Of a stretch of 32,000 bases of DNA, positions 6,901 to 17,055 are shown piece after piece (the stretch's first letter is position 1; every line of letters begins with the position of its first letter). The notes below the pieces were generated by a model. It was given only the letters and a program-made list of their open reading frames with translations, was not told where the DNA came from and did not search any database. The position numbers and the translations under genes were made by a program. The DNA comes from Neisseriaceae bacterium TC5R-5. GTDB taxonomy: Bacteria > Pseudomonadota > Gammaproteobacteria > Burkholderiales > Chromobacteriaceae. The stretch lies in NCBI GenBank assembly GCA_020830965.2, contig JACCFC020000005.1, positions 107,049 to 139,048 of the forward strand, given 5' to 3'.

Positions 6901-7850
6901 ACAGTTACGCGATACAACGCTTTGGCGCCATCCTGGCTTGCCGCGACCAGGTCGCCTGTGCCAAACAGGCCGGACAGCAGCAAAGCCATGGTCAAAGCAT
7001 CGGTGCCGGTTTTGCTAACGATGACTGGCGCGTTGATCTTGGCCACACACCGCTGGCCTTTCCCGTCAGCTACTTCGTCGGGGGCCTCAAACACTTCGGC
7101 AAAATCAATCAACTCAACTACAGCATCGACATCGCCCAACGCCCGCTCACCAGCTCACTGCTCAGCTACGCCGGCACCCGCGACCCCTACACCGGCGAGA
7201 CCTGGGGCGGCGTCCGCAGTCGCAGCCTCAGCACAGGGCTAGGCTATGATCAGGGTGAAGCGCTAGGGGTGTGGAGTAATCTTGGCTATCAGCAGCTGAC
7301 AGGCGAAAACGTCGCCCGCAATCGTCGCCTGAGTATGATGGGAGGGGTGTACTGGCGCATACACAAAGACGACACCCACCGCCTGACCGTGGGTATCAAC
7401 AATATCAACTTCTGGTACCAGAAAAACCTCAGTGAATTTACGCTGGGGCAAGGCGGCTACTACAGCCCGCAAGCCTATCACTCGCTATCCGTCCCCATCA
7501 GCTACGCGCTGCGCAATGAACGCTGGAGCACGCTATTCCGCTTCGCCCCCTCGCTCTCCTACGCGCGGGAAAACAGCACCCCGTTCTACCCGACCCGGCC
7601 CGATCTGCAACAGCAAACCGGTAACCCGCAATTCAGCAGCAGTAGCGGCCCCGGCAAAGGCGTATCCGCCAGCACCGCTTTTGAATATCAGCTTAATCCC
7701 CGGCTGGTGCTGGGCGGCCAACTGGAATACCAATACTCCCCCCTCTACCAACCCGGCCATGCCCAGCTCTATCTACGCTACAGCCTGGCCCCGGCGGCAC
7801 AAACGCTACCTTTCCCGGTAGAACCCCTCGTGCCCTATACGAGTTTTTAG
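3951..7850 (+). CDS. bcsC: Cellulose synthase outer-membrane/TPR subunit BcsC
   Basis: The product is 1299 aa with an N-terminal signal peptide and a long Ala/Gln/Leu-rich TPR-like region. The C-terminal ~350 aa show alternating aromatic beta-strand patterning ending in ...YTSF, typical of an OM barrel terminus. It overlaps the bcsZ end by 10 nt. Confidence 0.9.
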   Translation: MSLIRTLLTFILLFLALAAAATGSTSDPAQALLAQARLWQSLNHRDEAQQALAKLHQLAALSPAVQAEALALQAMLQLQNQQLQPASQTLKQLKQQYPHSAVIHKVEQLQRVLGSQHAQLLQARALARSGKTDAAIAVLDALYQGPPPDGELALEYWSLVVRSPNKGWQRAHAGLSKLQQATPDNRSYQLALADLYLYQPPAPPTIFATLQTLTLYPDSRKSALKTWRRALLQLEQHAQPNWFNAYLREVPDDSSVAQHRDRLAAQAARQRALLADPGYRARLAASKQLDNNQLAAAERSLEQAQVHYGQEADVLGNWGRLRAKQGQYQQAIAFYRQAQRQDKQNRQWSQALVDSYFEQQLAQAARAIEANNFKRAEQHLQQAAKLRPHAIELTLSRAQLAEAQQQLALAWRDYHDVLTRAPANAQALAGLIRLYLQQGEASQASAYLDNLPKQQRHLLGSAYPAAQASIARQQAEQLLASGQRALAIKALQQAVALQAQDPWNRLALAKAWLADGQAAKGEAVLQALLNTPQADSNTRYAYALFQSSQEQNQAALLTLEHIPTTERSDSMAQLQRQLWLRETLRLASAENAHGQPQAAQQRLQHASQRFADDPAQLSELASGWLQLGPREPALALMQKVYQQHPDKEYTLRYARLLLDAQQSTALLALLAQWDHQQAAPLTPAQQSELTAIYSGLALLKASAARQQGQDEQARELLDQALIADPQQADLLRERAELDISQQQWQRAEQRLQLALQYKPQDDEAKLLLLDSYRQTGQWAARQQLAQTLLNERPLRSLDYRLRVLNRLSEQDDPQLSTQALDTMQQQGESSPALFGLQAERALKQQQADSALKHYRHSFSPTSGLSQQPLVSNSMLPGQAALASEVPAIGQPPNSQTALQTVSSESQQLADLHASYAALLDKRTGTVQGGLDWSFRGGSTGTPGQSQLAMWQAPLLLQIPGPANGQYFLRSDYTSLDAKSLQSSDSYAIQRFGAILACRDQVACAKQAGQQQSHGQSIGAGFANDDWRVDLGHTPLAFPVSYFVGGLKHFGKINQLNYSIDIAQRPLTSSLLSYAGTRDPYTGETWGGVRSRSLSTGLGYDQGEALGVWSNLGYQQLTGENVARNRRLSMMGGVYWRIHKDDTHRLTVGINNINFWYQKNLSEFTLGQGGYYSPQAYHSLSVPISYALRNERWSTLFRFAPSLSYARENSTPFYPTRPDLQQQTGNPQFSSSSGPGKGVSASTAFEYQLNPRLVLGGQLEYQYSPLYQPGHAQLYLRYSLAPAAQTLPFPVEPLVPYTSF

Positions 7851-7863
7851 GAAAGACCACATC

Positions 7864-8247
7864 ATGCTCAAGCCCTGCTGTCAGCTCCTTTTTACTCTAT
7901 TGCTGACCGCCTGCGCCCATCCCCCAGCCACCCCGGCACAACAAAGCCTGGCGCAAGCGCGGGCCGAATACTGGCGCTCCCCCTACCAACCGGCGGCCAT
8001 CAACCAACTAGCTCTACAACTGGTACAAGCTGGCGATAGCGATACCGCACGGCTGCTCTGGTACCGCGCCCTACGCATCGCCCCTGATCGCGACGATATC
8101 CGCGCCAATCTGCTGCTATTAGAAGCAGGCACTCGCCAACTAGACCAGAGTGCCACCGATCCGCTCAGCCCAGCCAGCAGCAAGTCAAGCAAGCCACCCC
8201 CACCGCTACCGGCCCCCTGGCAACGCCTGCCACAGCACAGCCCTTAA
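7864..8247 (+). CDS. Small putative lipoprotein with one TPR-like repeat and a proline-rich tail, co-oriented 13 nt after bcsC
   Basis: A good SD (AGGAAAG) lies 7-13 nt upstream of the ATG. The lipobox is LLLTAC at the end of a hydrophobic leader. A TPR-like stretch (AINQLALQLVQAGDSDTARLLWYRALRIAPD) and a tail PASSKSSKPPPPLPAPW follow. I recognise no family. Confidence 0.55.
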   Translation: MLKPCCQLLFTLLLTACAHPPATPAQQSLAQARAEYWRSPYQPAAINQLALQLVQAGDSDTARLLWYRALRIAPDRDDIRANLLLLEAGTRQLDQSATDPLSPASSKSSKPPPPLPAPWQRLPQHSP

Positions 8248-8318
8248 GAGCCTGATCCAGCGTTGCGCCTTGGCTCAGTTGCTCTTCGAGCTTTTGTTAG
8301 CCGCTCTTAGCGACACCA
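8238..8318 (+). repeat. Correia-like MITE, copy A (short variant: 39-bp internal deletion and missing AACAAAAC core of the left TIR)
   Basis: CCTGATCCAGCGTTGCGCC/TTGGCTCAGTTGCTCTTCGAGCTTTTGTTAGCCGCTCTTAGCGAC aligns with copy D (15741-15862), except that D positions 15781-15819 are absent. That missing segment is flanked by GCGCC direct repeats in D. Boundaries are approximate. Confidence 0.7.
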
Positions 8319-8362
8319 GCGAAGAACCTGTGCCAATATCAATTTGGCATTAATTTAAAGCA

Positions 8363-8706
8363 ATGATAGGATCACAAGCAAAATTCACAACCAAAGAAAA
8401 GCAATGCGATACTGGCGTCGAAAAAGCCTTATATGACTGGGTCGCCCCCAGCTTGTACTACGTTTTTTTACACCGGTTCCACCGGTTTGGACGGCATATG
8501 ACCCGGATGATATTTGGGCAGAAGTACAAGAGAAGCAGCGCAAAGAACGGGAAGCCGGCTGCTGCCGACAGTGCTTCATCCGTTTGCGCCGCTGGCGCAT
8601 CAAAAGAGTGCTGCGCTCGGAATGGGCCAAAATTAAAGAAGTATTGAAGAAAGCCCCGTTTGAGTACCAGGGCAAGCTCCCAGAAGATTATCCATTTGAT
8701 GACTAG
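8363..8706 (+). other. Candidate small gene split over two frames: ATG 8363 in frame 2, then a protein-like open frame 1 from 8437 to TAG 8704-8706. It may be a frameshifted pseudogene, a homopolymer error or a -1 frameshift gene
   Basis: Frame 1 is open for 89 codons with no ATG (…TPVPPVWTAYDPDDIWAEVQEKQRKEREAGCCRQCFIRLRRWRIKRVLRSEWAKIKEVLKKAPFEYQGKLPEDYPFDD*). The two frames meet at a T7 run, zero-frame codons GTT TTT TTA at 8462-8470. I recognise no family and there is no clear SD at 8363. Confidence 0.25.
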
Positions 8707-10367
8707 TGCTGACAGCCATTATTGGCGGCAACGATGCCGCCATTGGGCGAGGTATAACCCAAGCAACCGAGTATGGTATCGAATAGTTGTACATGCCGTA
8801 AGGTTTTACCAGCACGCTGCTGAGCCGCTAACTGTTCAAAACCATGGCGCTGCTGCGGGCTAGCTAGGTACTTATCGGAAGCCCATACCATGATGGGCAC
8901 GCGAAACTGTTCAGCAGGGGCCAACTGACGTGGTGTGCCATGCAGATGCTCATTTTCAGCAATCGATTCGCCATGGTCAGCCGCATAAAACACGATCGCC
9001 TTCTTATCCCGCAACTGATCAATCACCTTGCTGATAAACGCATCGGTATACAGCACGCTATTATCGTAAGCGTTAATCAATTGTGCCTTGCTACAGAAGC
9101 TATCCACGCTCAGACACTCCGGTTGATAACGAGCATAAGCTGGTGGATAGCGTTGTGAATATTGATAATGCGAACCTTTGGTATGCAGAATCACCAGATG
9201 TTTGCCTTGCGGGTAGCGTGCTAAGGAAGCCGCCACCTCCTCCAGCAATAGCATGTCATCAACCGGTTTGCCCTCATTACGCCCCTCCGCAGTAATCAAC
9301 TCGCGAAATGCATAATTATCTACCTCGGTTTTATTATAGAACCACACCTCGCTCTGCATCGCGAACAATTCCGAGCTAAAACCCATCTGCTTCAACACCG
9401 CAAAAACATTTTGCTCTTTCAAGGTGCGTTGCGGATTGTCTGCTGCTCCGCCTTCACGCACAAACATACAACGCAGCGATAATTTGGTAGAGGTGTCGCA
9501 AGACTCCCCGCGAAACACCAGTAGATTGCTCTCTCGTGACAACTTGGGGGTGGTATCCCGGGCATAGCCCAATAGGCCCAGATGATCCCAACGAGTGGTT
9601 TCACCGATGATAAAGACCATATAAGTGTCATTGATTCCCGCTGGTGAGACATAGCGAAAATGCTGCGCCGGGTCAAACAGCTTGCTCTGATTGTCGTATT
9701 CGTCGTAGCGGGTATAGGCAAACAAACCTAGTGCCGACAACCAATTAGCGGGCAGGTAAGCATGCACCACCCCACCACCATAGCTGGATAAATCGAGATT
9801 ACTACGTTGCGCCTGCTTACTATGCTCTTGATCCAACACCCGCAATGGTAGCCACACCAGCAACAAAGCCGCGAGCAAAAACAATAGCGACTTCAAACGC
9901 TGACCAGGCATTTTCAGCCGCTGCAGCAGTGTGTCACGCAACGGGCTTTGCCAAATACACAGCAAGGGCAACGCACTTAATAACACGGTCCACAGCACAA
10001 AATGCCATCCGATCACTTCGACAGACAAATCTATATCTGTCGTGATGACTGAAGCGATCACCCCGTAACCAATCACCACACCGAAAAAAGCGACGTAATA
10101 ACTGGCAGCAACGGAGGTCAGCAACAGCAGTGTGGCAGCAAAGCGATAAAACCACCGTCCGGCCAAAGAACACAGTTGCAGTAATAGGTAGGTAAACAGC
10201 ACAGCGGCCACGGCCTCCGCCAGCGTGGAGACAAGCTTGATCGCTAGCGGCTGCTGTAAAGATGTCAGCAAACGGCGATAAAAAACGGGAAGATTTAACA
10301 AAAGGCCAATATAGAGGCCCAACCATAAAGAGAGGTTTTTATGTAATAGTGATTTTATTTTATTCAT
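8703..10367 (-). CDS. eptB: Phosphoethanolamine transferase of the EptA/EptB family, closest by motif to EptB (Kdo-lipid A PEtN transferase)
   Basis: The product is 554 aa with an N-terminal multi-TM region (LYIGLLLNLPVFYRRL...) and a sulfatase-fold domain. Motifs are FIIGETTRWDHLGLLGYARDTTP, ESCDTSTKLSLRCMF, HTKGSHYQYSQRYP, YDNSVLYTD, YAADHGES and HLHGTP. These match my recollection of E. coli EptB better than EptA (GETSRAENF / SCGTATAVSVPCMF). Confidence 0.8.
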   Translation of the reverse strand: MNKIKSLLHKNLSLWLGLYIGLLLNLPVFYRRLLTSLQQPLAIKLVSTLAEAVAAVLFTYLLLQLCSLAGRWFYRFAATLLLLTSVAASYYVAFFGVVIGYGVIASVITTDIDLSVEVIGWHFVLWTVLLSALPLLCIWQSPLRDTLLQRLKMPGQRLKSLLFLLAALLLVWLPLRVLDQEHSKQAQRSNLDLSSYGGGVVHAYLPANWLSALGLFAYTRYDEYDNQSKLFDPAQHFRYVSPAGINDTYMVFIIGETTRWDHLGLLGYARDTTPKLSRESNLLVFRGESCDTSTKLSLRCMFVREGGAADNPQRTLKEQNVFAVLKQMGFSSELFAMQSEVWFYNKTEVDNYAFRELITAEGRNEGKPVDDMLLLEEVAASLARYPQGKHLVILHTKGSHYQYSQRYPPAYARYQPECLSVDSFCSKAQLINAYDNSVLYTDAFISKVIDQLRDKKAIVFYAADHGESIAENEHLHGTPRQLAPAEQFRVPIMVWASDKYLASPQQRHGFEQLAAQQRAGKTLRHVQLFDTILGCLGYTSPNGGIVAANNGCQH

Positions 10368-10413
10368 CTGATGTGATGGTTATGGCTGGCCTTGACAGAT
10401 AGAGAGCTTTAAC

Positions 10414-10435
10414 AAAATGCCGCTCCCGGCATTTT
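10414..10435 (-). promoter_or_regulatory. Terminator-like hairpin in the eptB 5' leader region
   Basis: AAAATGCCG-CTCC-CGGCATTTT forms a 9-bp stem with a 4-nt loop. On the - strand the stem runs into TTTTGTT, and it lies ~45 nt upstream of the eptB ATG (10367). Confidence 0.3.
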
Positions 10436-10599
10436 TGCAGCATTGCCCAAGTAGATTTCGGGCCGGCCCCTAAGTTAAGAAAAGCAGACCGCAGAGTCTT
10501 TCCACCCCCACCATACAATCCACTGGCGCCCGAGTTTAACGCAAAAAAACACAGGAAATACAATATTACCGTGCGCAAAACTGACAAATTTGCCCAACA

Positions 10600-10680
10600 G
10601 CTTAAAGCCGCTAACAAAACCTCGAACAGCCGCTAAGTCAAGGTGTACCGACACAGACAGTACCAGTGATACTGCGCGGC
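10600..10680 (-). repeat. Correia-like MITE, copy B (truncated: one TIR plus ~75 bp, other end missing)
   Basis: CTTAAAGCCGCTAACAAAACCTCGAACAGC...GACAGTACCAGTGATAC aligns with the left half of copy C. Similarity is lost after ~10680. Confidence 0.65.
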
Positions 10681-10767
10681 ATAAAACGAGTGTCAGCACT
10701 TATTTACTCCACAACTGCTTGACAGCAGCAAACGTACTGGACGAAGCTACTGACAGCTTTACCTTAC

Positions 10768-10898
10768 CTTTAAGTGCCGCTAACAAAACCTCGAAGAGCA
10801 CCTGCGCCAAGACGCGCCGACGCAGATCCTACCAGTGGCACGGCAAGAAGGTACGACGCTGGATCAGGGGGTTTGTTAGCGGCTCTCACTCATAAGGA
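10768..10898 (-). mobile_element. Correia-like MITE, copy C (full length, inverted relative to copy D)
   Basis: The TIRs GCCGCTAACAAAACC (10778-10792) and GGGGGTTTGTTAGCGGC (10867-10883) are reverse complements. The reverse complement of C aligns with copy D at roughly 80-85% identity by eye over ~113 bp. The element ends about 10 nt before the toxin ATG. Confidence 0.8.
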
Positions 10899-10906
10899 AA
10901 ACAGAC

Positions 10907-11704
10907 ATGAGTCAAGCCAGTCAGGACGAAGGCATTAGTATTGTTATGAGCGCGCCGCAACTGGCCGCAGCATTGGCCCGGAAAACCCTTAGCCAAGGCG
11001 ATATCCTGAGTAATCGCTTTTGGGGAAGTTTAGAACTAGCTGGCGGCATTCTGGAGATGGTAGGCGCTGGCGCGTTATGTATCGCACCCGAACCCACTGG
11101 CGCAACTAAAGTAGGATGCGTCGCGATTGGTGCGCATGGCGCCGATACCATCGCCACTGGCGCACGTAAAGTCTGGACCGGCGAAGATAGCAGAAGCCTG
11201 ACACAGCAAGGCGTCATCAAGCTGGCCGAAACAATGAAGGCAAACCCTAGCCAAGCTGGGAATATCGCCATAGCCGTAGACATGTCTGTACCAATCGGAC
11301 TCGCCAGCATGGTAAACGCCGCACGTGTCAGCAGCATAACTTTGGGACGGTTTAGAATTTCAGAACACGAGGCAAAAAGCCTTGGCGGAAGAGGTGGGCA
11401 TACCCTTGCCAAGCATGTCGGACAAACCAAAGAAGAGATGTTAGCAAGACTTGAAAAAGAAAAAGACCTATTTAAAGTCTCATCATTTTATAGTAGAAAA
11501 TTAGCAGAATGGGGAGTATCTGAAGTCCTTCTAAAAAGATCATCAGAAATTAGCTCATGGGCTAAATCATCCTCTACTCGCCCTTTAGAGATAGAAGAGG
11601 CGGTTGGAAAAGTAGTAGGACATGGAATAAACAGAGGCAAAGATAATTTTAAGGAAATATACAATGGCATGCCTTATTTTGTCTTAACGGCATACCCGAA
11701 GTAA
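10907..11704 (+). CDS. Stand-alone polymorphic-toxin-like protein: unassigned glycine-rich hydrophobic N-terminal region plus C-terminal bacterial RNase-A-like (CdiA-CT type) nuclease domain
   Basis: SD AAGGAAA lies 7-13 nt upstream of the ATG. The C-terminal signature GGHTLAKHVGQTKEEMLARL (nt 11393-11452) and terminal LTAYPK (T-x-Y) match my recollection of the CdiA-CT RNase A-like family (H-T-[IL]-x-[KR]-H-V-G-K/Q-T; catalytic His and C-terminal Thr/Tyr). I see no signal peptide, PAAR, Rhs/YD, FHA, LXG or MIX features. It is followed 8 nt later by a CdiI-like ORF. Confidence 0.7.
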   Translation: MSQASQDEGISIVMSAPQLAAALARKTLSQGDILSNRFWGSLELAGGILEMVGAGALCIAPEPTGATKVGCVAIGAHGADTIATGARKVWTGEDSRSLTQQGVIKLAETMKANPSQAGNIAIAVDMSVPIGLASMVNAARVSSITLGRFRISEHEAKSLGGRGGHTLAKHVGQTKEEMLARLEKEKDLFKVSSFYSRKLAEWGVSEVLLKRSSEISSWAKSSSTRPLEIEEAVGKVVGHGINRGKDNFKEIYNGMPYFVLTAYPK

Positions 11705-11712
11705 GGAAAAGT

Positions 11713-12009
11713 ATGGAAGATACTCGAAAGCTATACCCGAATTTACACCTTCTTTTTGGCGCTTACCTAATGCAAGACTGGACTCTATGGGGAAGCACAA
11801 TAGAAGATGTAATACTTCGCTACAAAAAGGACATGAATCAAGAAGAGTGCCAAGCAGCCATTCATGAAATAGATGAATTCATTAACAGGCACCCTAATGA
11901 TTTAAATGAATACTATGAAGAGCTATTTGGAGAGGAAATTTCAATAGAAGCATTTGGTTATTCGCCATCTTCTTTTCTTGAATATTTAAAATATACTATC
12001 TCAACATAA
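11713..12009 (+). CDS. CdiI-like immunity protein (contact-dependent growth inhibition immunity family)
   Basis: This is a 98-aa acidic protein. The N-terminal block YPNLHLLFGAYLMQDW resembles the Y-P-x-L-x-x-F-x-G-x-Y-F-H-Q-D-W hallmark of a CdiI family. It has SD GGAAAAG upstream, starts 8 nt after the toxin stop, shares the toxin 3' half's AT-rich composition, and is followed by a terminator. Confidence 0.65.
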   Translation: MEDTRKLYPNLHLLFGAYLMQDWTLWGSTIEDVILRYKKDMNQEECQAAIHEIDEFINRHPNDLNEYYEELFGEEISIEAFGYSPSSFLEYLKYTIST

Positions 12010-12016
12010 ATTTCAG

Positions 12017-12052
12017 AAGGCCAAGACCTAAAAACCTTGGCCTTTATTTGTT
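12017..12052 (+). terminator. Rho-independent terminator after the toxin/immunity pair
   Basis: AAGGCCAAG (12017-12025) pairs with CTTGGCCTT (12036-12044) around a 10-nt loop, followed by TATTTGTTAGTTTATTTATT. Confidence 0.75.
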
Positions 12053-12166
12053 AGTTTATTTATTATTCTGCTAGTTAGTTTGCTTGAATCGCCAACCCTC
12101 ACTTCTGCCCTATTTTCGGAAAAAAATTCTCACAGCCACCGCTAAACCCGCACAGTAAAGCCGCCC

Positions 12167-13777
12167 TTATTGCAGCCCCTCATAGCCTGCCCATTCACCC
12201 CCACTTTGCCGCCATAAATACTGCTTGCCGCGCTGCATAACAATATTATCTGCATCCTCGGCCACAAACGGCGTATTTGGCAGTTTCTGGCTATAGCTAG
12301 TGGGCTGATAATCCGCGCCAAACGGGCTGCGATTAAGCATTTGCGCCAGAATGTCGCTGATGGCCAGATAGCTTACTGGCTGGTCTAAGCGCACTGGCAG
12401 CGGCTTGCCCTGGCCACCAATCACCTTAATAGCCGCCGGCACAATGGTAATCGCCGGGGTGGGAATATCACGCAAGCCGGCAAACTGCTGCTTGTCACCA
12501 TGCAAAGCCGCGCCATGCTCCGGTACCAGTAATAGAATCACCTTGCGCTGACTGCGTTCTAAATCATCAATGAATAGTCCTAAATCGCTAAACAACTTAT
12601 GCGCCCGCGCTTTATAGCTGTCCAGGCTGTTGAGATTGGGTTGATCAAGCAGGCGATTACCATCGTGCAGGCTGATGGTATTGTAGTAAGCGGCAATATG
12701 ACTGCTTTGATCCTGCTGCCGCTGCTCCAGCCAATGCTTGAGCATGCCGTAATCGTCGTAAATGGGACTATCGTCAAAGCCGCGCTGGGCTACAGTTTGA
12801 CCCTGTTGACTCAAGAGCGGTAAAGACAGCCGCCCTTCCTTGCGCAACAGCGACAGAAAATCATCAAAGTGACCATCGTGGTTGAGTAATAGCTCATTTT
12901 TAAAACCGAGCCGTGCCAGGTTTTCAAACAAGAAGCACTGGCTATTGCCGGGTTCATAAAGCCCTTTATGGCTAGTTTGCCCGCAACTGGCCCGCAATAC
13001 CCGTAGTGCCGCAGGGCCACTATAAGGAGTGGCGGTATTAAAGTGAGTAAAGACAAAATCAAAACGACTCAATAAAGGCGAGTTATCCAGACCCACCTCG
13101 CGCAAATCGTCCCAGGCCAGCGAGCAGACATGAATCAGCAATACATCAAAAGCGCTGTCAGCCGCAGGCGGTAGAAACTGCACTTTGCGTTGGCTTTCGC
13201 TGCGGTAAAAAGCTTGCAGTTCGGCATCCGGAGTTTGCTGGATAGCTGGTACCCGCTCAGGCTGAGGCGCCGCAGCCACGATAAGCGGTTTGCTTTCCGA
13301 TTGTAGCCATTGCTGTCCAGCAGTCACTAATAGCGCGATGATAACCAGGCTGCTGACCCGCAGGTAGCGATTGAGCAACACATAGCCCAGTACTAGTAAA
13401 GCGCCTGCCAGTAGCGACCGGGCTGACAGCAGACGGCCAAGCAACTCCAGCCAATAAGCGAAACTAAAATCGCGCAGGCTAGCCAGTTGGCTAAGCATGG
13501 GCAGCAAAGACGGCAGCCAGGAATCGTAATACAACAGAACTAATGCCAACAGGCTGGCGACAAGAGTGCGCAGGCGCATTTTGCGCGGCCCATACACCGG
13601 TATCAGCAGTAATAGTGCAAAAGCCAGGTTGAGCCCAATATGCAGACCCAGACTACCCTGCCAGTACAACACCAGCTTGGCGCAGAAATAGAGACTCCAC
13701 CAAGCTAAGCCCTGACTATGCGGGCGTGAGTCAGTTGGCACCCAATGTAAAGCGGGATCAGTGTTTGATTTTGGCAT
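12167..13777 (-). CDS. bcsG: Cellulose phosphoethanolamine transferase BcsG
   Basis: The product is 536 aa with an N-terminal TM region (GLAWWSLYFCAKLVLYWQG...LNLAFALLLLIP) like E. coli BcsG and an alkaline-phosphatase-fold domain. The block DVLLIHVCSLAWDDL has its candidate catalytic Ser codon at 13121-13123. It follows bcsE-bcsF. Confidence 0.85.
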   Translation of the reverse strand: MPKSNTDPALHWVPTDSRPHSQGLAWWSLYFCAKLVLYWQGSLGLHIGLNLAFALLLLIPVYGPRKMRLRTLVASLLALVLLYYDSWLPSLLPMLSQLASLRDFSFAYWLELLGRLLSARSLLAGALLVLGYVLLNRYLRVSSLVIIALLVTAGQQWLQSESKPLIVAAAPQPERVPAIQQTPDAELQAFYRSESQRKVQFLPPAADSAFDVLLIHVCSLAWDDLREVGLDNSPLLSRFDFVFTHFNTATPYSGPAALRVLRASCGQTSHKGLYEPGNSQCFLFENLARLGFKNELLLNHDGHFDDFLSLLRKEGRLSLPLLSQQGQTVAQRGFDDSPIYDDYGMLKHWLEQRQQDQSSHIAAYYNTISLHDGNRLLDQPNLNSLDSYKARAHKLFSDLGLFIDDLERSQRKVILLLVPEHGAALHGDKQQFAGLRDIPTPAITIVPAAIKVIGGQGKPLPVRLDQPVSYLAISDILAQMLNRSPFGADYQPTSYSQKLPNTPFVAEDADNIVMQRGKQYLWRQSGGEWAGYEGLQ

Positions 13778-13985
13778 CTTCAGTTTTATCAGGACTGACC
13801 ATCATCCGCTGTGCCAGCCGCTGTTGGTAAGGGTGCTGCTGAAAATAACGCAGACGGCGGCGACGTTGCAGATAACGTCGCCAGCCCGGCAGAATAAGCG
13901 CATGGATGGCATAGCCTATTAATAGCGCAAACAAGCTGTAACTGAGCAGCAGAAAGTCGGCATGGCTGAGTTGAGGATTAGGCAT
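13758..13985 (-). CDS. bcsF: Small membrane protein BcsF
   Basis: This is a 75-aa protein with a single TM helix (FLLLSYSLFALLIGYAIHALIL) followed by an Arg-rich tail. SD GAGG lies ~9 nt upstream. It sits between bcsE and bcsG and overlaps the bcsG start by 20 nt. Confidence 0.7.
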   Translation of the reverse strand: MPNPQLSHADFLLLSYSLFALLIGYAIHALILPGWRRYLQRRRRLRYFQQHPYQQRLAQRMMVSPDKTEDAKIKH

Positions 13986-14008
13986 ACACTGGCGCCTCTA
14001 CAAAAAGT

Positions 14009-15610
14009 TCAACGACGCTGCAAGCGAGCACTGACCGGAACCCCTGGCCAGTTGGCTGAGAAATGAGCGGGCTGTGGACTGTCGACAACTGAGGTCGTCT
14101 CACTCAGCAAGACCGCGCCCAGATCAGGCAATTCGGCAAAACCGGCCTGCTCCGCCAAACGCTCCAGGCTGAGCTGGATACCATCGCTATCTGGGGTACG
14201 TACTTCAAACGAGATAATTTCATTGATCGGTAAGCGAAACAGATGCGGCAAGGCGGCATCGACATCGCTTTCCCGGCAGGCAAACAGAAACAGGTAAATA
14301 TCGTTCTGATCCGCGGTGCACAGATCACCAGCACGTTTGAAACGACTCAGGCGCAATAAATCCAGTGGCGAGGCACCTGGTGCCGGCCGCAGACGCAACA
14401 TCACATTATGGATATCAAGATGCCGGCTGCGTTTAACCGCCTGCCTGACCACCTCAACAAAACGAGCGGGGGGTAAATAGCCACGGTCATGCTCTGGTTC
14501 GCTCGCCTGCTGTAACTCCTGTTCGGGGCTACTACGATGTGTTTGGTAAACCGCCTGCTGTAATCCCTGCAAAACATTCAGCACACTGGTAAAGCGCAAC
14601 TCGGCAGGAAGCACCGCATTGGCCCCCAAACGCAATAATAACTGCTCCTCATTATGGCGCAGGCGGCTGTTGCCCACTTCCCGTACCAGAATTTTCAATT
14701 GCGCCCCACAATGCTGCCGCAGACGTTGTATCAGTGGGGCTAGCTTGCCGGTTTTGCTGGTGGAGTCCAGCAGGATGCTGGCAGAAATCGCGGAACTGGC
14801 CATATTGAACAGGTCTTCGAGATCATCAAATACCTGCCAGAACGAGGAAGGGGTAGCATTGTCAGCCAGGCTGACACGCGTAGCAAACACTTGTTGCCAA
14901 TCCGCCGCCTGCTGTGACGCTTGTGCTGACAAGCTGGCTGCCTGCCCGGCAGAAAATAATCGTAGCTGACCAGGTTTATTCAGTTCCAGAGAATAGATAG
15001 TCGGTTTAAGAACCGAACCCTCACCCTCCCAGTACAATACCTGCCAGTTATACAGTTCATTACCTGCATACTGGGCATGCACTAAGCCGGCACAGCACTT
15101 GGCCTGTTCCGTCAGTAACTGATTTTGTGTCAGGCTAAGCCGCTGTGCCTCCACCAGCAAGAGCACGATATGCCCATGCTGCTCGGCCCAGCGCTGGCAG
15201 AGCGCCAGACGACGGCGGCACGCCAGCGCATCCGCCAAAGGCAGGTAATCTTCGGCATTATCCAATACCAGCAGCAAGCAATCACTCGCAGCCGGTAACT
15301 GATGCTGGCAGCGAGCCAACTCGTCAAGACAGGCGAGCAAATGACGCGCCCCACCCCGGCCTCGTGCCGAGAACAACAATATTGAGCGATGGTGTAAACG
15401 CTGATCCAGACAATCAGTATCACAAGCGCTAGCGGGTTCTTTCGCACTGGCGATAATGAGCGAAATCTGGCTGTCCAGCGGCAAATTGGCAAATAGCAAT
15501 GCCTGAGTCAGCTCTACGGTATGGCTCATCACCAGGTATATTGCACCTGGATGCATTCCCCCGGCCGCCGGGCTCAAGCCAGTAATTCCCAACGTCGACA
15601 CCGTCTGCAT
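14009..15610 (-). CDS. bcsE: c-di-GMP-binding cellulose regulator BcsE (GIL domain)
   Basis: The product is 533 aa, comparable to E. coli BcsE. The RxGD motif in LSRFKRAGDLCTADQNDIYLFLFACRESD (RAGD at nt 14324-14335) resembles the E. coli RTGD region. It is the first gene of the bcsEFG unit. Confidence 0.8.
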   Translation of the reverse strand: MQTVSTLGITGLSPAAGGMHPGAIYLVMSHTVELTQALLFANLPLDSQISLIIASAKEPASACDTDCLDQRLHHRSILLFSARGRGGARHLLACLDELARCQHQLPAASDCLLLVLDNAEDYLPLADALACRRRLALCQRWAEQHGHIVLLLVEAQRLSLTQNQLLTEQAKCCAGLVHAQYAGNELYNWQVLYWEGEGSVLKPTIYSLELNKPGQLRLFSAGQAASLSAQASQQAADWQQVFATRVSLADNATPSSFWQVFDDLEDLFNMASSAISASILLDSTSKTGKLAPLIQRLRQHCGAQLKILVREVGNSRLRHNEEQLLLRLGANAVLPAELRFTSVLNVLQGLQQAVYQTHRSSPEQELQQASEPEHDRGYLPPARFVEVVRQAVKRSRHLDIHNVMLRLRPAPGASPLDLLRLSRFKRAGDLCTADQNDIYLFLFACRESDVDAALPHLFRLPINEIISFEVRTPDSDGIQLSLERLAEQAGFAELPDLGAVLLSETTSVVDSPQPAHFSANWPGVPVSARLQRR

Positions 15611-15736
15611 AATACATGCGCCCTGCTGCTGAGAAGTTTGCCACCATGGTTTCTACAACTTATCTATTCGTTGTAAACCATTTCGTCAGGCTTGCCAGGG
15701 CTTATCCACGTCTCAAGCCGTACGATGTCTGTCGGC

Positions 15737-15862
15737 ACACCTTAGCGCCGCGAACAAAACCCCTGATCCAGCGTTGCGCCTCCTTGCCGTACGACTGGTA
15801 CTGTCTGCGTCGGCGCGCCTTGGCTCAAGGCTCTTCGCGGTGTTGTTAGCGACTCTTAGCAC
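15737..15862 (+). mobile_element. Correia-like MITE, copy D (full length)
   Basis: The TIRs are CTTAGCGCCGCGAACAAAAC (15741-15760) and GTGTTGTTAGCGACTCTTAG (15840-15859). The interior CCTGATCCAGCGTTGCGCCTCCTTGCCGTACGACTGGTACTGTCTGCGTCGGCGCGCCTTGG is shared with copies A, B and C. It lies 30 bp downstream of the zapE stop and ~130 bp upstream of the bcsE start. Confidence 0.8.
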
Positions 15863-15891
15863 TGACGCCGTACCAGATTTGCTGGGTGAAA

Positions 15892-17055
15892 TTAAATAAT
15901 CACCCCTGCTGGCGGCTGATCATGACTCTGCCCCGCAGAATGATGCGGTAAAGCCAGGTAACTGCTGGATTGCATTTCGGTAAGCCGACTGGCCGTACGG
16001 AAGAACTCGCTTGCCTGCTGGCCGACCAGATAAAGCTGCTCCGCTTCCACTGCAGCAGTCGCAATCAGATTGACCCGGTTGTCGTACAGCACATCCACCA
16101 GCCACGTAAAACGCCGGGCAATAGCCGCCTGGCTGGCACTGAGCTGCGGAATAGCCGACAGAAAGACTGTATGGTATTCCCGCGCGATTTCCAGATAATC
16201 GGTTTGTGCACGCGGGCCATCACACAGGTCGAGAAAATCAAACCAAATCACCCCGGGAGCGATTTTTTTCAGCGGGATGCTGCGCCCAAGCACGGTAAGG
16301 TTTTTTTGTGACAGCGTGACACCGCCACTGAGGCGTGCAAACATCGCCGCCATTTTGGCTTCGTTCTCGGCGTTGACTGGCACCATGAACAAGGGTTCCC
16401 GCGTTAATTCGCGCAAACGGTAATCATGGCCACCATCAACATTCAATACGGTCAGTTCACGTTTGATCAGCTCAATAGTGGGTAGGAAGTTCTGCCGTTG
16501 CAGGCCATTAGGATAAAGGCCATCTGGCGGATAGTTCGAAGTCGTCACCACCACCACGCCACGCTCCAGCAAGGCAATCAACAGACGGCCCAGCATCATC
16601 GCATCGGCAATATCGCTGACGTGAAACTCATCAAAACATAAGAGCCGGGTATGCCGGGCGATTTTATCGGCATAGGCAAGTAAAGGATCGTTGCTACCGG
16701 CCAAGGCCCGTAACTCCTGATGCACTTCGGCCATAAAATGATGAAAATGAATACGCCGCTTACGTCGATACGGCACGCAGGCATAAAACGCATCCATCAG
16801 AAAACTTTTACCGCGCCCTACTCCACCCCACAGATATAAACCTTTAGGCACATCTGGGCTGCGCAGACTGCGTCCCAGGAAGCGGTTACGCTTATCTTTA
16901 AAATCGATCAACTGCTGCCACAGCTTGTCCAGCTCAGCAATAGCGGCAGCCTGTGCTGCATCATGAATAAAGCCGGGCTGCTGGCTGGCAGCCTGATACC
17001 AGGCCTGGGGGCGGCTATGGGCACGCTGGTCGGGAGAAAAAGTGTGTTGGGACAT
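15892..17055 (-). CDS. zapE: Cell division protein ZapE (AFG1-family ATPase)
   Basis: The product is 387 aa with Walker A GGVGRGKSFLMD and Walker B LLCFDEFHVSD, typical length and layout of YhcM/ZapE. Confidence 0.85.
   Translation of the reverse strand: MSQHTFSPDQRAHSRPQAWYQAASQQPGFIHDAAQAAAIAELDKLWQQLIDFKDKRNRFLGRSLRSPDVPKGLYLWGGVGRGKSFLMDAFYACVPYRRKRRIHFHHFMAEVHQELRALAGSNDPLLAYADKIARHTRLLCFDEFHVSDIADAMMLGRLLIALLERGVVVVTTSNYPPDGLYPNGLQRQNFLPTIELIKRELTVLNVDGGHDYRLRELTREPLFMVPVNAENEAKMAAMFARLSGGVTLSQKNLTVLGRSIPLKKIAPGVIWFDFLDLCDGPRAQTDYLEIAREYHTVFLSAIPQLSASQAAIARRFTWLVDVLYDNRVNLIATAAVEAEQLYLVGQQASEFFRTASRLTEMQSSSYLALPHHSAGQSHDQPPAGVII

Follow-up and report, generated by a model that had tools for sequence, protein, structure and literature searches.

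Analysis of a 32,000-nucleotide stretch of the genome of Neisseriaceae bacterium TC5R-5 (hereafter the window, on contig C94 of a 3.53-Mb assembly of 148 contigs with 51.4% G+C) revealed that four short repeats in its cellulose (bcs) locus are most probably fossil copies of a non-autonomous MITE (miniature inverted-repeat transposable element), which combines the ends of an IS5-family insertion sequence (IS) with a core homologous to that of the Correia element of Neisseria. A sequence-only reading of the window had proposed a mobile, Correia-like MITE family represented by four copies, A to D. The four copies are real, with boundaries refined to those in Table 1, and the family is indeed mobile, with about 200 copies in the genome and a 3-bp target-site duplication; the Correia relationship stands for the interior of the element and not for its ends. 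In what follows G000 denotes the source genome and other G numbers denote sampled relatives.

A total of 200 loci in G000 were identified by blastn with the four copies and 203 by an nhmmer profile, with both ends kept in 146-147, so a local duplication without further copies does not account for the repeats. Alignment of 103 copies showed that conservation drops abruptly at sharp element boundaries. The modal element is 112 nt long, running from GAGCC... to ...GGCTC, with terminal inverted repeats of about 17-19 nt and a 17-bp terminus, GAGCCGCTAACAAAACC. Terminal inverted repeats with GCTAACAAAAC/GTTTTGTTAGC, described by the sequence-only reading, are present in both full-length window copies, and copy C is the reverse complement of copy D at 82.9% identity over 111 nt, within the 80-85% that had been estimated. 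The flanking triplets covary, with TTA/TTA at 56 copies, TAA/TAA at 41 and discordant TTA/TAA at five, which points to a 3-bp target-site duplication at T(T/A)A; a C often precedes this triplet and a G often succeeds it. Two size classes were found in G000, the main class of 112 nt and a class of 73 nt (10-11 copies), the latter of which may be a transposing subfamily or the product of recurrent slippage between GCGCCT(C) repeats. No copies longer than 120 nt between terminus motifs were found in G000, hence no long IHF-bearing form. No Rfam family matched the element at gathering or relaxed thresholds. By its size (112 bp), non-coding nature, dispersed copies, terminal inverted repeats, target duplication and recent movement (in the relative G014, see below), the element is a MITE.

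The Correia element is the founding example of bacterial MITEs, has been known for nearly 40 years and shapes gene expression in pathogenic Neisseria. It is bounded on both sides by a 26-bp Correia repeat, TATAGTGGATTAA(CAAAAA/ATTTAAA)... (PMC5039591, PMC9778887), and duplicates a 2-bp TA target, a filled site measuring 107 bp and an empty site 105 bp (PMC2229807). By size its copies form three classes (153-157, 104-108 and 69-73 bp), of which the longest carries an IHF site (PMC2649163). In Neisseria they act as RNase III sites, terminators or stabilisers, and promoters (PMC2649163, PMC10969869), and reviews treat the element as Neisseria-specific (PMC3184786, PMC2649163, PMC10969869). Its mobilising mechanism 'has not been determined' (PMC2649163). 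Our literature search found no account of Correia relatives outside Neisseria, of a Chromobacterium MITE or of a terminus of the GAGCCGCTAACAAAACC type.

For the comparison, Correia termini were taken from published descriptions (PMC5039591, PMC9778887), and the real elements came from contigs of IMG/VR and from three genomes within the same order in which those termini are present. The G000 consensus aligned with a real short Correia copy at a local score of 59 (44/53 positions identical), as against 15.2 +/- 2.4 in 2000 dinucleotide shuffles, none of which scored as high (z = 18.5); the blocks in common with Correia that the sequence-only reading had listed are thus borne out by alignment. 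A single-sequence nhmmer search of Correia against G000 was not significant (E ~1), with nine of the 14 top hits in MITE copies and in the same orientation; profile, covariance-model and shuffle tests were used in its place. A model built from 56 G000 copies only (R1), which has 10 base pairs and is therefore essentially a sequence model, matched 110, 77 and nine places in the three genomes carrying the published termini, the first two counts being Correia elements in Neisseria-type genomes. All of these matches are short-form Correia elements, aligned over model positions 32-81 without indels. Homology of the core to Correia is well supported by these comparisons.

The ends of the element give a different result. 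Of the 26-bp Correia repeat only TAACAAAAC is present, no match to TATAGTGGATTAACAAAAAYC was found in G000, and identity of the outer termini to those of Correia is 29-43%. Since the Correia repeat is absent and the duplication is of 3 bp (TWA) and not of 2 bp (TA), the family is classed here, on sequence grounds, as a sister of Correia and not as a Correia element in the strict sense. It is very improbable that the repeats are true Correia (CREE) elements acquired from Neisseria. Such an origin would fit the 83-84% identity of the core and the occurrence of TAACAAAAC in the termini of both, but it does not fit the outer termini (GAGCCGC as against TATAGTGGAT), the size of the duplication, or the distribution of the family, which occurs in abundance in each of the 18 genomes sampled from the genus and also in several other families within the order. 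Furthermore, TATAG ends occur in every Neisseriaceae genus examined and never in the G000 family.

Analysis of the termini linked the MITE to an insertion sequence. Two orphan terminus pairs led to a cognate IS in G000 (C80:4298-5168, ~870 bp), which has the MITE termini and about 25-28 nt of subterminal similarity and whose open reading frames (ORFs) match DUF4096, DDE_Tnp_1 and NCBIfam NF033580 (IS5-family transposases). The IS copies in G000 are damaged, the C80 copy by a TAG inside OrfA and a copy in C78 by an N-terminal frameshift. Intact copies of 863-864 bp, with MITE termini and TTA/TTA or TAA/TAA duplications, were found in G006 (at least eight), G010, G011, G331 and G322. In every intact copy the overlap of OrfA and OrfB is in the -1 frame and at one constant place, which fits a programmed frameshift. 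IS5-family elements about 70% identical to this IS are present on plasmids or megaplasmids of Burkholderia, Ralstonia and Edwardsiella ictaluri, and the copies on the Ralstonia megaplasmid and Edwardsiella pEI1 have a terminus and duplication identical to those of the MITE. Overall, GAGCCGCTAACAAAACC occurs at both IS ends in G000, G006, G010, G011, G331, G322, Ralstonia and pEI1. We take the NF033580 (transpos_IS5_3) elements to be the IS427/IS1031 groups of ISfinder, with GAG ends and a 3-bp TNA duplication. Common termini together with the same unusual target duplication are the standard argument for trans-mobilisation, and because MITE and IS have both in common, this IS5-family clade is the probable mobiliser of the MITE.

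Under this explanation, an IS5-family IS (864 bp, NF033580, two overlapping ORFs joined by a -1 frameshift) would supply a DDE transposase in trans. The transposase would bind the ~17-bp terminal inverted repeats common to MITE and IS and would insert the element at T(T/A)A, with duplication of 3 bp. Selection would then leave copies nearly all between genes, preferentially just past stop codons. The element itself would be a chimera, its ends coming from the IS and its ~50-nt centre being a stem-loop module homologous to the Correia core and not derived from the IS. A search with the core model found no core-like segment inside the IS, and derivation of the core from the IS interior was rejected on this ground.

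Two side observations concern insertion sequences in G000. The region C94:49805-52168, which lies about 55 kb upstream of the window, holds a pair of degenerate cognate IS copies separated by an unrelated gene, with a nested MITE beside one of them. Fragments of other NF033580-type transposases, without nucleotide similarity to the cognate IS, occur at contig ends (e.g. C97:3-404, C30, C43, C79, C63, C73 and C57), which suggests that other multicopy insertion sequences break the G000 assembly.

Evidence of recent movement came from G014, a complete genome of the same genus in one contig. Twenty sampled copies there have a median pairwise identity of 98.2%, with 37 identical pairs and unrelated flanks, and 18 of the 20 have perfect TTA or TAA duplications. 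Judged by these identities, the MITEs of G014 transposed very recently. Young MITE pairs were also found head to tail around a single common TTA in this genome (G014:C1:3407764-3407996 and 4121206-4121438), an arrangement which suggests that one copy was inserted into the duplicated target site of the other.

Several results weigh against the IS as mobiliser. No cognate IS was found in G014, where no NF033580 match was better than 4.5e-7 and all terminus matches were at MITE spacing. G006 has at least eight intact IS copies yet only 22 diverged MITEs; the expectation that IS-rich genomes hold the youngest MITEs was contradicted by these two genomes. In lineages with other MITE termini (G029, G088, G077 and G135) and in the Neisseria-type G212, the IS5_3 ends are unrelated to those of the MITE, so the matched partner holds only for GAGCCGC-type termini. 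These results raise the alternative that a different enzyme moves the MITE and that the identical IS termini reflect captured ends or common descent, without current trans-mobilisation. The burst in a complete genome lacking both the cognate IS and any IS5_3 transposase, the few and old MITEs of IS-rich G006, and a further genome, G050, with many MITEs and no NF033580 match are all in its favour. We nevertheless consider this alternative unlikely, given the identical 17-bp terminus, the subterminal similarity and the same 3-bp TWA duplication in MITE and IS. Moreover, the IS clade is often plasmid-borne, which makes a transient source of transposase plausible, and G014 yielded no further element bearing these termini. 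The G014 burst would plausibly be explained by an IS that is on a plasmid or was lost recently. The claim for the IS5-family clade as mobiliser is limited to this extent.

Comparison across the order revealed that the core is far more widely distributed than the ends found in G000. Of 150 genomes sampled from the order, R1 detected full-length elements (~118 nt) in 18, which belong to at least eight families. Among the matches listed, an exact copy of the core motif is present in Aquitalea, Vogesella, Chromobacterium, Rhodocyclaceae, Aromatoleum, Herbaspirillum, Noviherbaspirillum, Duganella, Ralstonia and Candidatus Glomeribacter. The core of every lineage is 68-96% identical to the G000 consensus, and that of Correia 84%; for the arms next to it identity is only 7-44% outside Chromobacteriaceae, and the termini differ by lineage. 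Two end types were distinguished: TWA|GAG..., with the IS5-family match, in Chromobacteriaceae and at least five other families, and TA|TAG... throughout Neisseriaceae. In the latter family 11 of the 25 sampled genera have core-bearing elements, all of which end in TATAG...CTATA and have very different arms. A core-only model (R2) found a related basal-stem motif with a different apical part in three more families of the class. As a side observation, G513, from another family of the class, contains a repeat unit of more than 170 nt that is identical at at least 10 loci and has a basal Correia-type core, GGCGTTGCGC...CTTG...CTGCG...GCGCGCCTTG, with a different apical loop and long palindromic arms.

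Analysis of base pairing gave different results between and within genomes. Between lineages 93.2% of cells are paired, as against 82.4% in shuffles (18-48% in slid controls), and 11 pairs have changed on both sides where 5.1 are expected; none of 500 shuffles reached either value, although the comparison is weakened by its use of single representative copies of related sequences. The predicted stem, as these figures show, has been kept by compensatory change between lineages. Within G000, by contrast, pairing equals the shuffled expectation (87.6% vs 87.5%), with no covariation. Covariation between lineages but not within the genome points to a constraint on the propagating master sequences and not on resident copies, which argues against a host function for most copies and is in keeping with the core serving to propagate the element. 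A broader reading is that an ancient superfamily of hairpin MITEs, with Correia as one branch, has the core as its long-lived part, that arms and termini have been swapped repeatedly with exploitation of different transposases, and that the core has been kept for propagation and not for the host. We put this reading forward tentatively, at somewhat less than even weight.

The conserved hairpin, its covariation between lineages and its persistence in genomes without the IS would also suit an element of the REP/REPIN type, for which a RAYT (Y1) transposase would recognise the hairpin and move the element. This is the least credible of the explanations considered: no Y1_Tnp (PF01797) match was found in G000, control genomes do match, and clear terminal inverted repeats together with a 3-bp duplication, features that REPINs lack, are present.

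The copies in G000 are old. Their median identity to the consensus is 89%, the maximum identity between nearest neighbours is 92.9%, and the core has decayed as much as the rest of the element (90.2% vs 89.7%, p = 0.86). As read from these identities, the G000 copies decay neutrally and the burst that produced them is old. Placement was assessed with a simple greedy ORF map (85% coding, 15% non-coding), on which 191 of the 203 copies (94%) are intergenic as against the 15% of non-coding DNA. Gaps between convergent genes hold copies at about twice the expected frequency, and between tandem gene pairs the copies lie at a median of 28 nt past the upstream stop and 120 nt ahead of the next start. 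With respect to genes the copies show no bias in orientation (63 vs 47). In 15 of 146 copies, copy A among them, the target duplication is at the same time a stop codon, where about 7% is expected; stop codons as preferred targets were rejected as an explanation, since the effect is only weak.

The four window copies, all without an ORF of their own, are listed in Table 1.

Table 1. Copies of the element in the window, with their flanking triplets
Copy	Span with flanks	Element	Length	Strand	Flanking triplets
A	8245..8309	8248-8306	59 nt	+	TAA 8245-8247 left, TTA 8307-8309 right
B	10602..10675	10605-~10675	~71 nt	-	TTA 10602-10604
C	10771..10888	10774-10885	112 nt, full-length	-	TAA 10771-10773, TCA 10886-10888 (one mismatch)
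D	15742..15858	15745-15855	111 nt, full-length	+	TTA 15742-15744, TTA 15856-15858 (perfect duplication)

Along the window bcsB, bcsZ and bcsC are followed by a small ORF and copy A. Next comes eptB on the minus strand with copies B and C after it, then the gene of an RNase-A-like toxin and a small ORF downstream of it. The minus-strand genes bcsG and bcsE, copy D and zapE (also minus) complete the order. Copy A (84% identity to the consensus) is a double internal-deletion derivative from which 14 nt have been lost at the left terminus and 39 nt in the core, the latter deletion lying between GCGCCT repeats as in the recurrent 73-nt class. The small ORF that follows bcsC (7864-8247) has the TAA flank of this copy as its stop codon; either a stop codon was used as the insertion target or the end of the ORF was remodelled by the insertion. 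Copy B is truncated, with one terminus and most of the core left and about 45 nt missing at the far end (83% identity over 71 nt), and it lies in the divergent gap between eptB (minus, start 10367) and the toxin gene (start 10907). Copy C, 87.5% identical to the consensus, ends 21 nt 5' of the toxin gene ATG and 8 nt 5' of the AAGGAA ribosome-binding site of that gene. Copy D is 93.7% identical to the consensus and is matched by both R1 and R2 (C94:122818-122871); it follows the zapE stop (15892) at a distance of 33 nt and precedes the bcsE start (15610) by 131 nt. A scan for sigma-70-like promoters found no match inside the window copies; a promoter-like match at 10536-10564 would place copies B and C in the leader of the toxin gene.

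The sequence-only reading had placed the element at every module junction of the locus and suggested that it may have helped to shuffle the locus. The first of these claims was overstated: the element is present in three of the five intergenic gaps longer than 100 nt (7800-16300), and MITEs survive almost only in intergenic DNA genome-wide. Four copies within 7.6 kb form one of six such clusters in G000, where a null limited to intergenic positions gives an expected number of 2.4 and a maximum of 8. As for shuffling, bcsG and zapE are unlinked in relatives, so the arrangement in G000 is derived; a rearrangement is thus seen, and a role of the MITE in it is not supported, as nothing links the element to its cause. 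Even in coding DNA, identity to other species of the genus is only 65-75%, and their intergenic regions do not align.

The copies may affect neighbouring genes, and the bcs-locus copies could be domesticated regulatory hairpins, serving as RNase III sites, terminators or stabilisers, or promoters. The consensus is predicted to fold into one long end-to-end hairpin (-58.9 kcal/mol, z = -6.2), copies lie close behind stops and are enriched between convergent genes, copy C adjoins the ribosome-binding site of the toxin gene, and Correia acts in this way in Neisseria (PMC2649163, PMC10969869). Domestication is nonetheless improbable in view of pairing that does not exceed chance within G000, equal decay of core and termini, lack of orientation bias, lack of a promoter-like match in the window copies, and the broken state of copies A and B. 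Consistent with the preferred explanation of the repeats as fossil MITE copies, we infer that those in the cellulose locus are old, partly broken and inert relics, which would at most form a strong hairpin in transcripts that cross them.

Further side observations were made on the locus and on the genome. The locus contains two phosphoethanolamine transferases, EptB (Kdo-lipid A type, 8703-10367) and BcsG (cellulose type, 12167-13777), with the toxin cassette between them. The N-terminal two thirds of the toxin gene (10891-11634) have paralogous DNA at C88:2337-3073 (75%) and C67:18601-19035 (72%); these similarities suggest a family of toxins with a common N-terminal module. G000, with its 51.4% G+C and 3.5 Mb, differs from the genomes of its assigned genus, Chromobacterium, which have 61-66% G+C and 4-5.7 Mb. 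Its genus assignment looks doubtful, or its lineage is very divergent.

For the cellulose locus the outcome of this study is deflating, since the copies there are old and partly broken, and as a kind of element the MITE is ordinary. It is noteworthy for what it says of the origin and breadth of Correia-type elements. The Correia core is common to abundant elements across Betaproteobacteria (Chromobacterium, Vogesella, Aquitalea, Rhodocyclaceae, Herbaspirillum and Ralstonia-type genomes), and, judged by core identity, Correia seems to form a single branch of a far wider family in that group. One branch has the ends and target duplication of an identifiable and sometimes intact IS5-family IS, with a very recent burst in at least one genome. 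The mover of such elements and the purpose of the conserved core thereby become experimentally testable. If the superfamily reading is true, the Chromobacterium element and its IS would be the first tractable model for Correia-type movement.

The element was compared with the three known systems nearest to it. Like Correia in its short 104-108-bp class, it is a small, non-coding hairpin MITE with hundreds of copies, mostly intergenic. The ~50-nt core in common extends without indels across the Correia short-form junction, CCTTGCCGTAC, the ~70-nt sub-class found here compares with the 69-73-bp class of Correia (PMC2649163), both have the terminal motif TAACAAAAC, and in both the mobiliser is missing from some genomes. 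It differs from Correia in its GAGCCGC... ends and 3-bp TWA duplication, as against ends of TATAGTGGAT... and a 2-bp TA duplication (PMC2229807), in that neither a 155-bp form with the IHF insert nor promoter-like matches in the window copies were found, and in having an identifiable cognate IS. With NF033580-type IS5 elements the MITE has in common the 17-bp termini, the TWA duplication and ~25 nt of subterminal sequence, but it has no coding capacity; its interior is unrelated to that of the IS, and it is therefore not a simple internal-deletion derivative. IS5-derived bacterial MITEs in general, such as MITEPsy1/ISPsy2 of Pseudomonas syringae (PMC3189936), are likewise non-autonomous and carry the terminal sequences and target duplication of an IS5-family IS resident in the genome. 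In the G000-type family, by difference, it is the interior and not the ends that is conserved across bacterial families, with compensatory changes.

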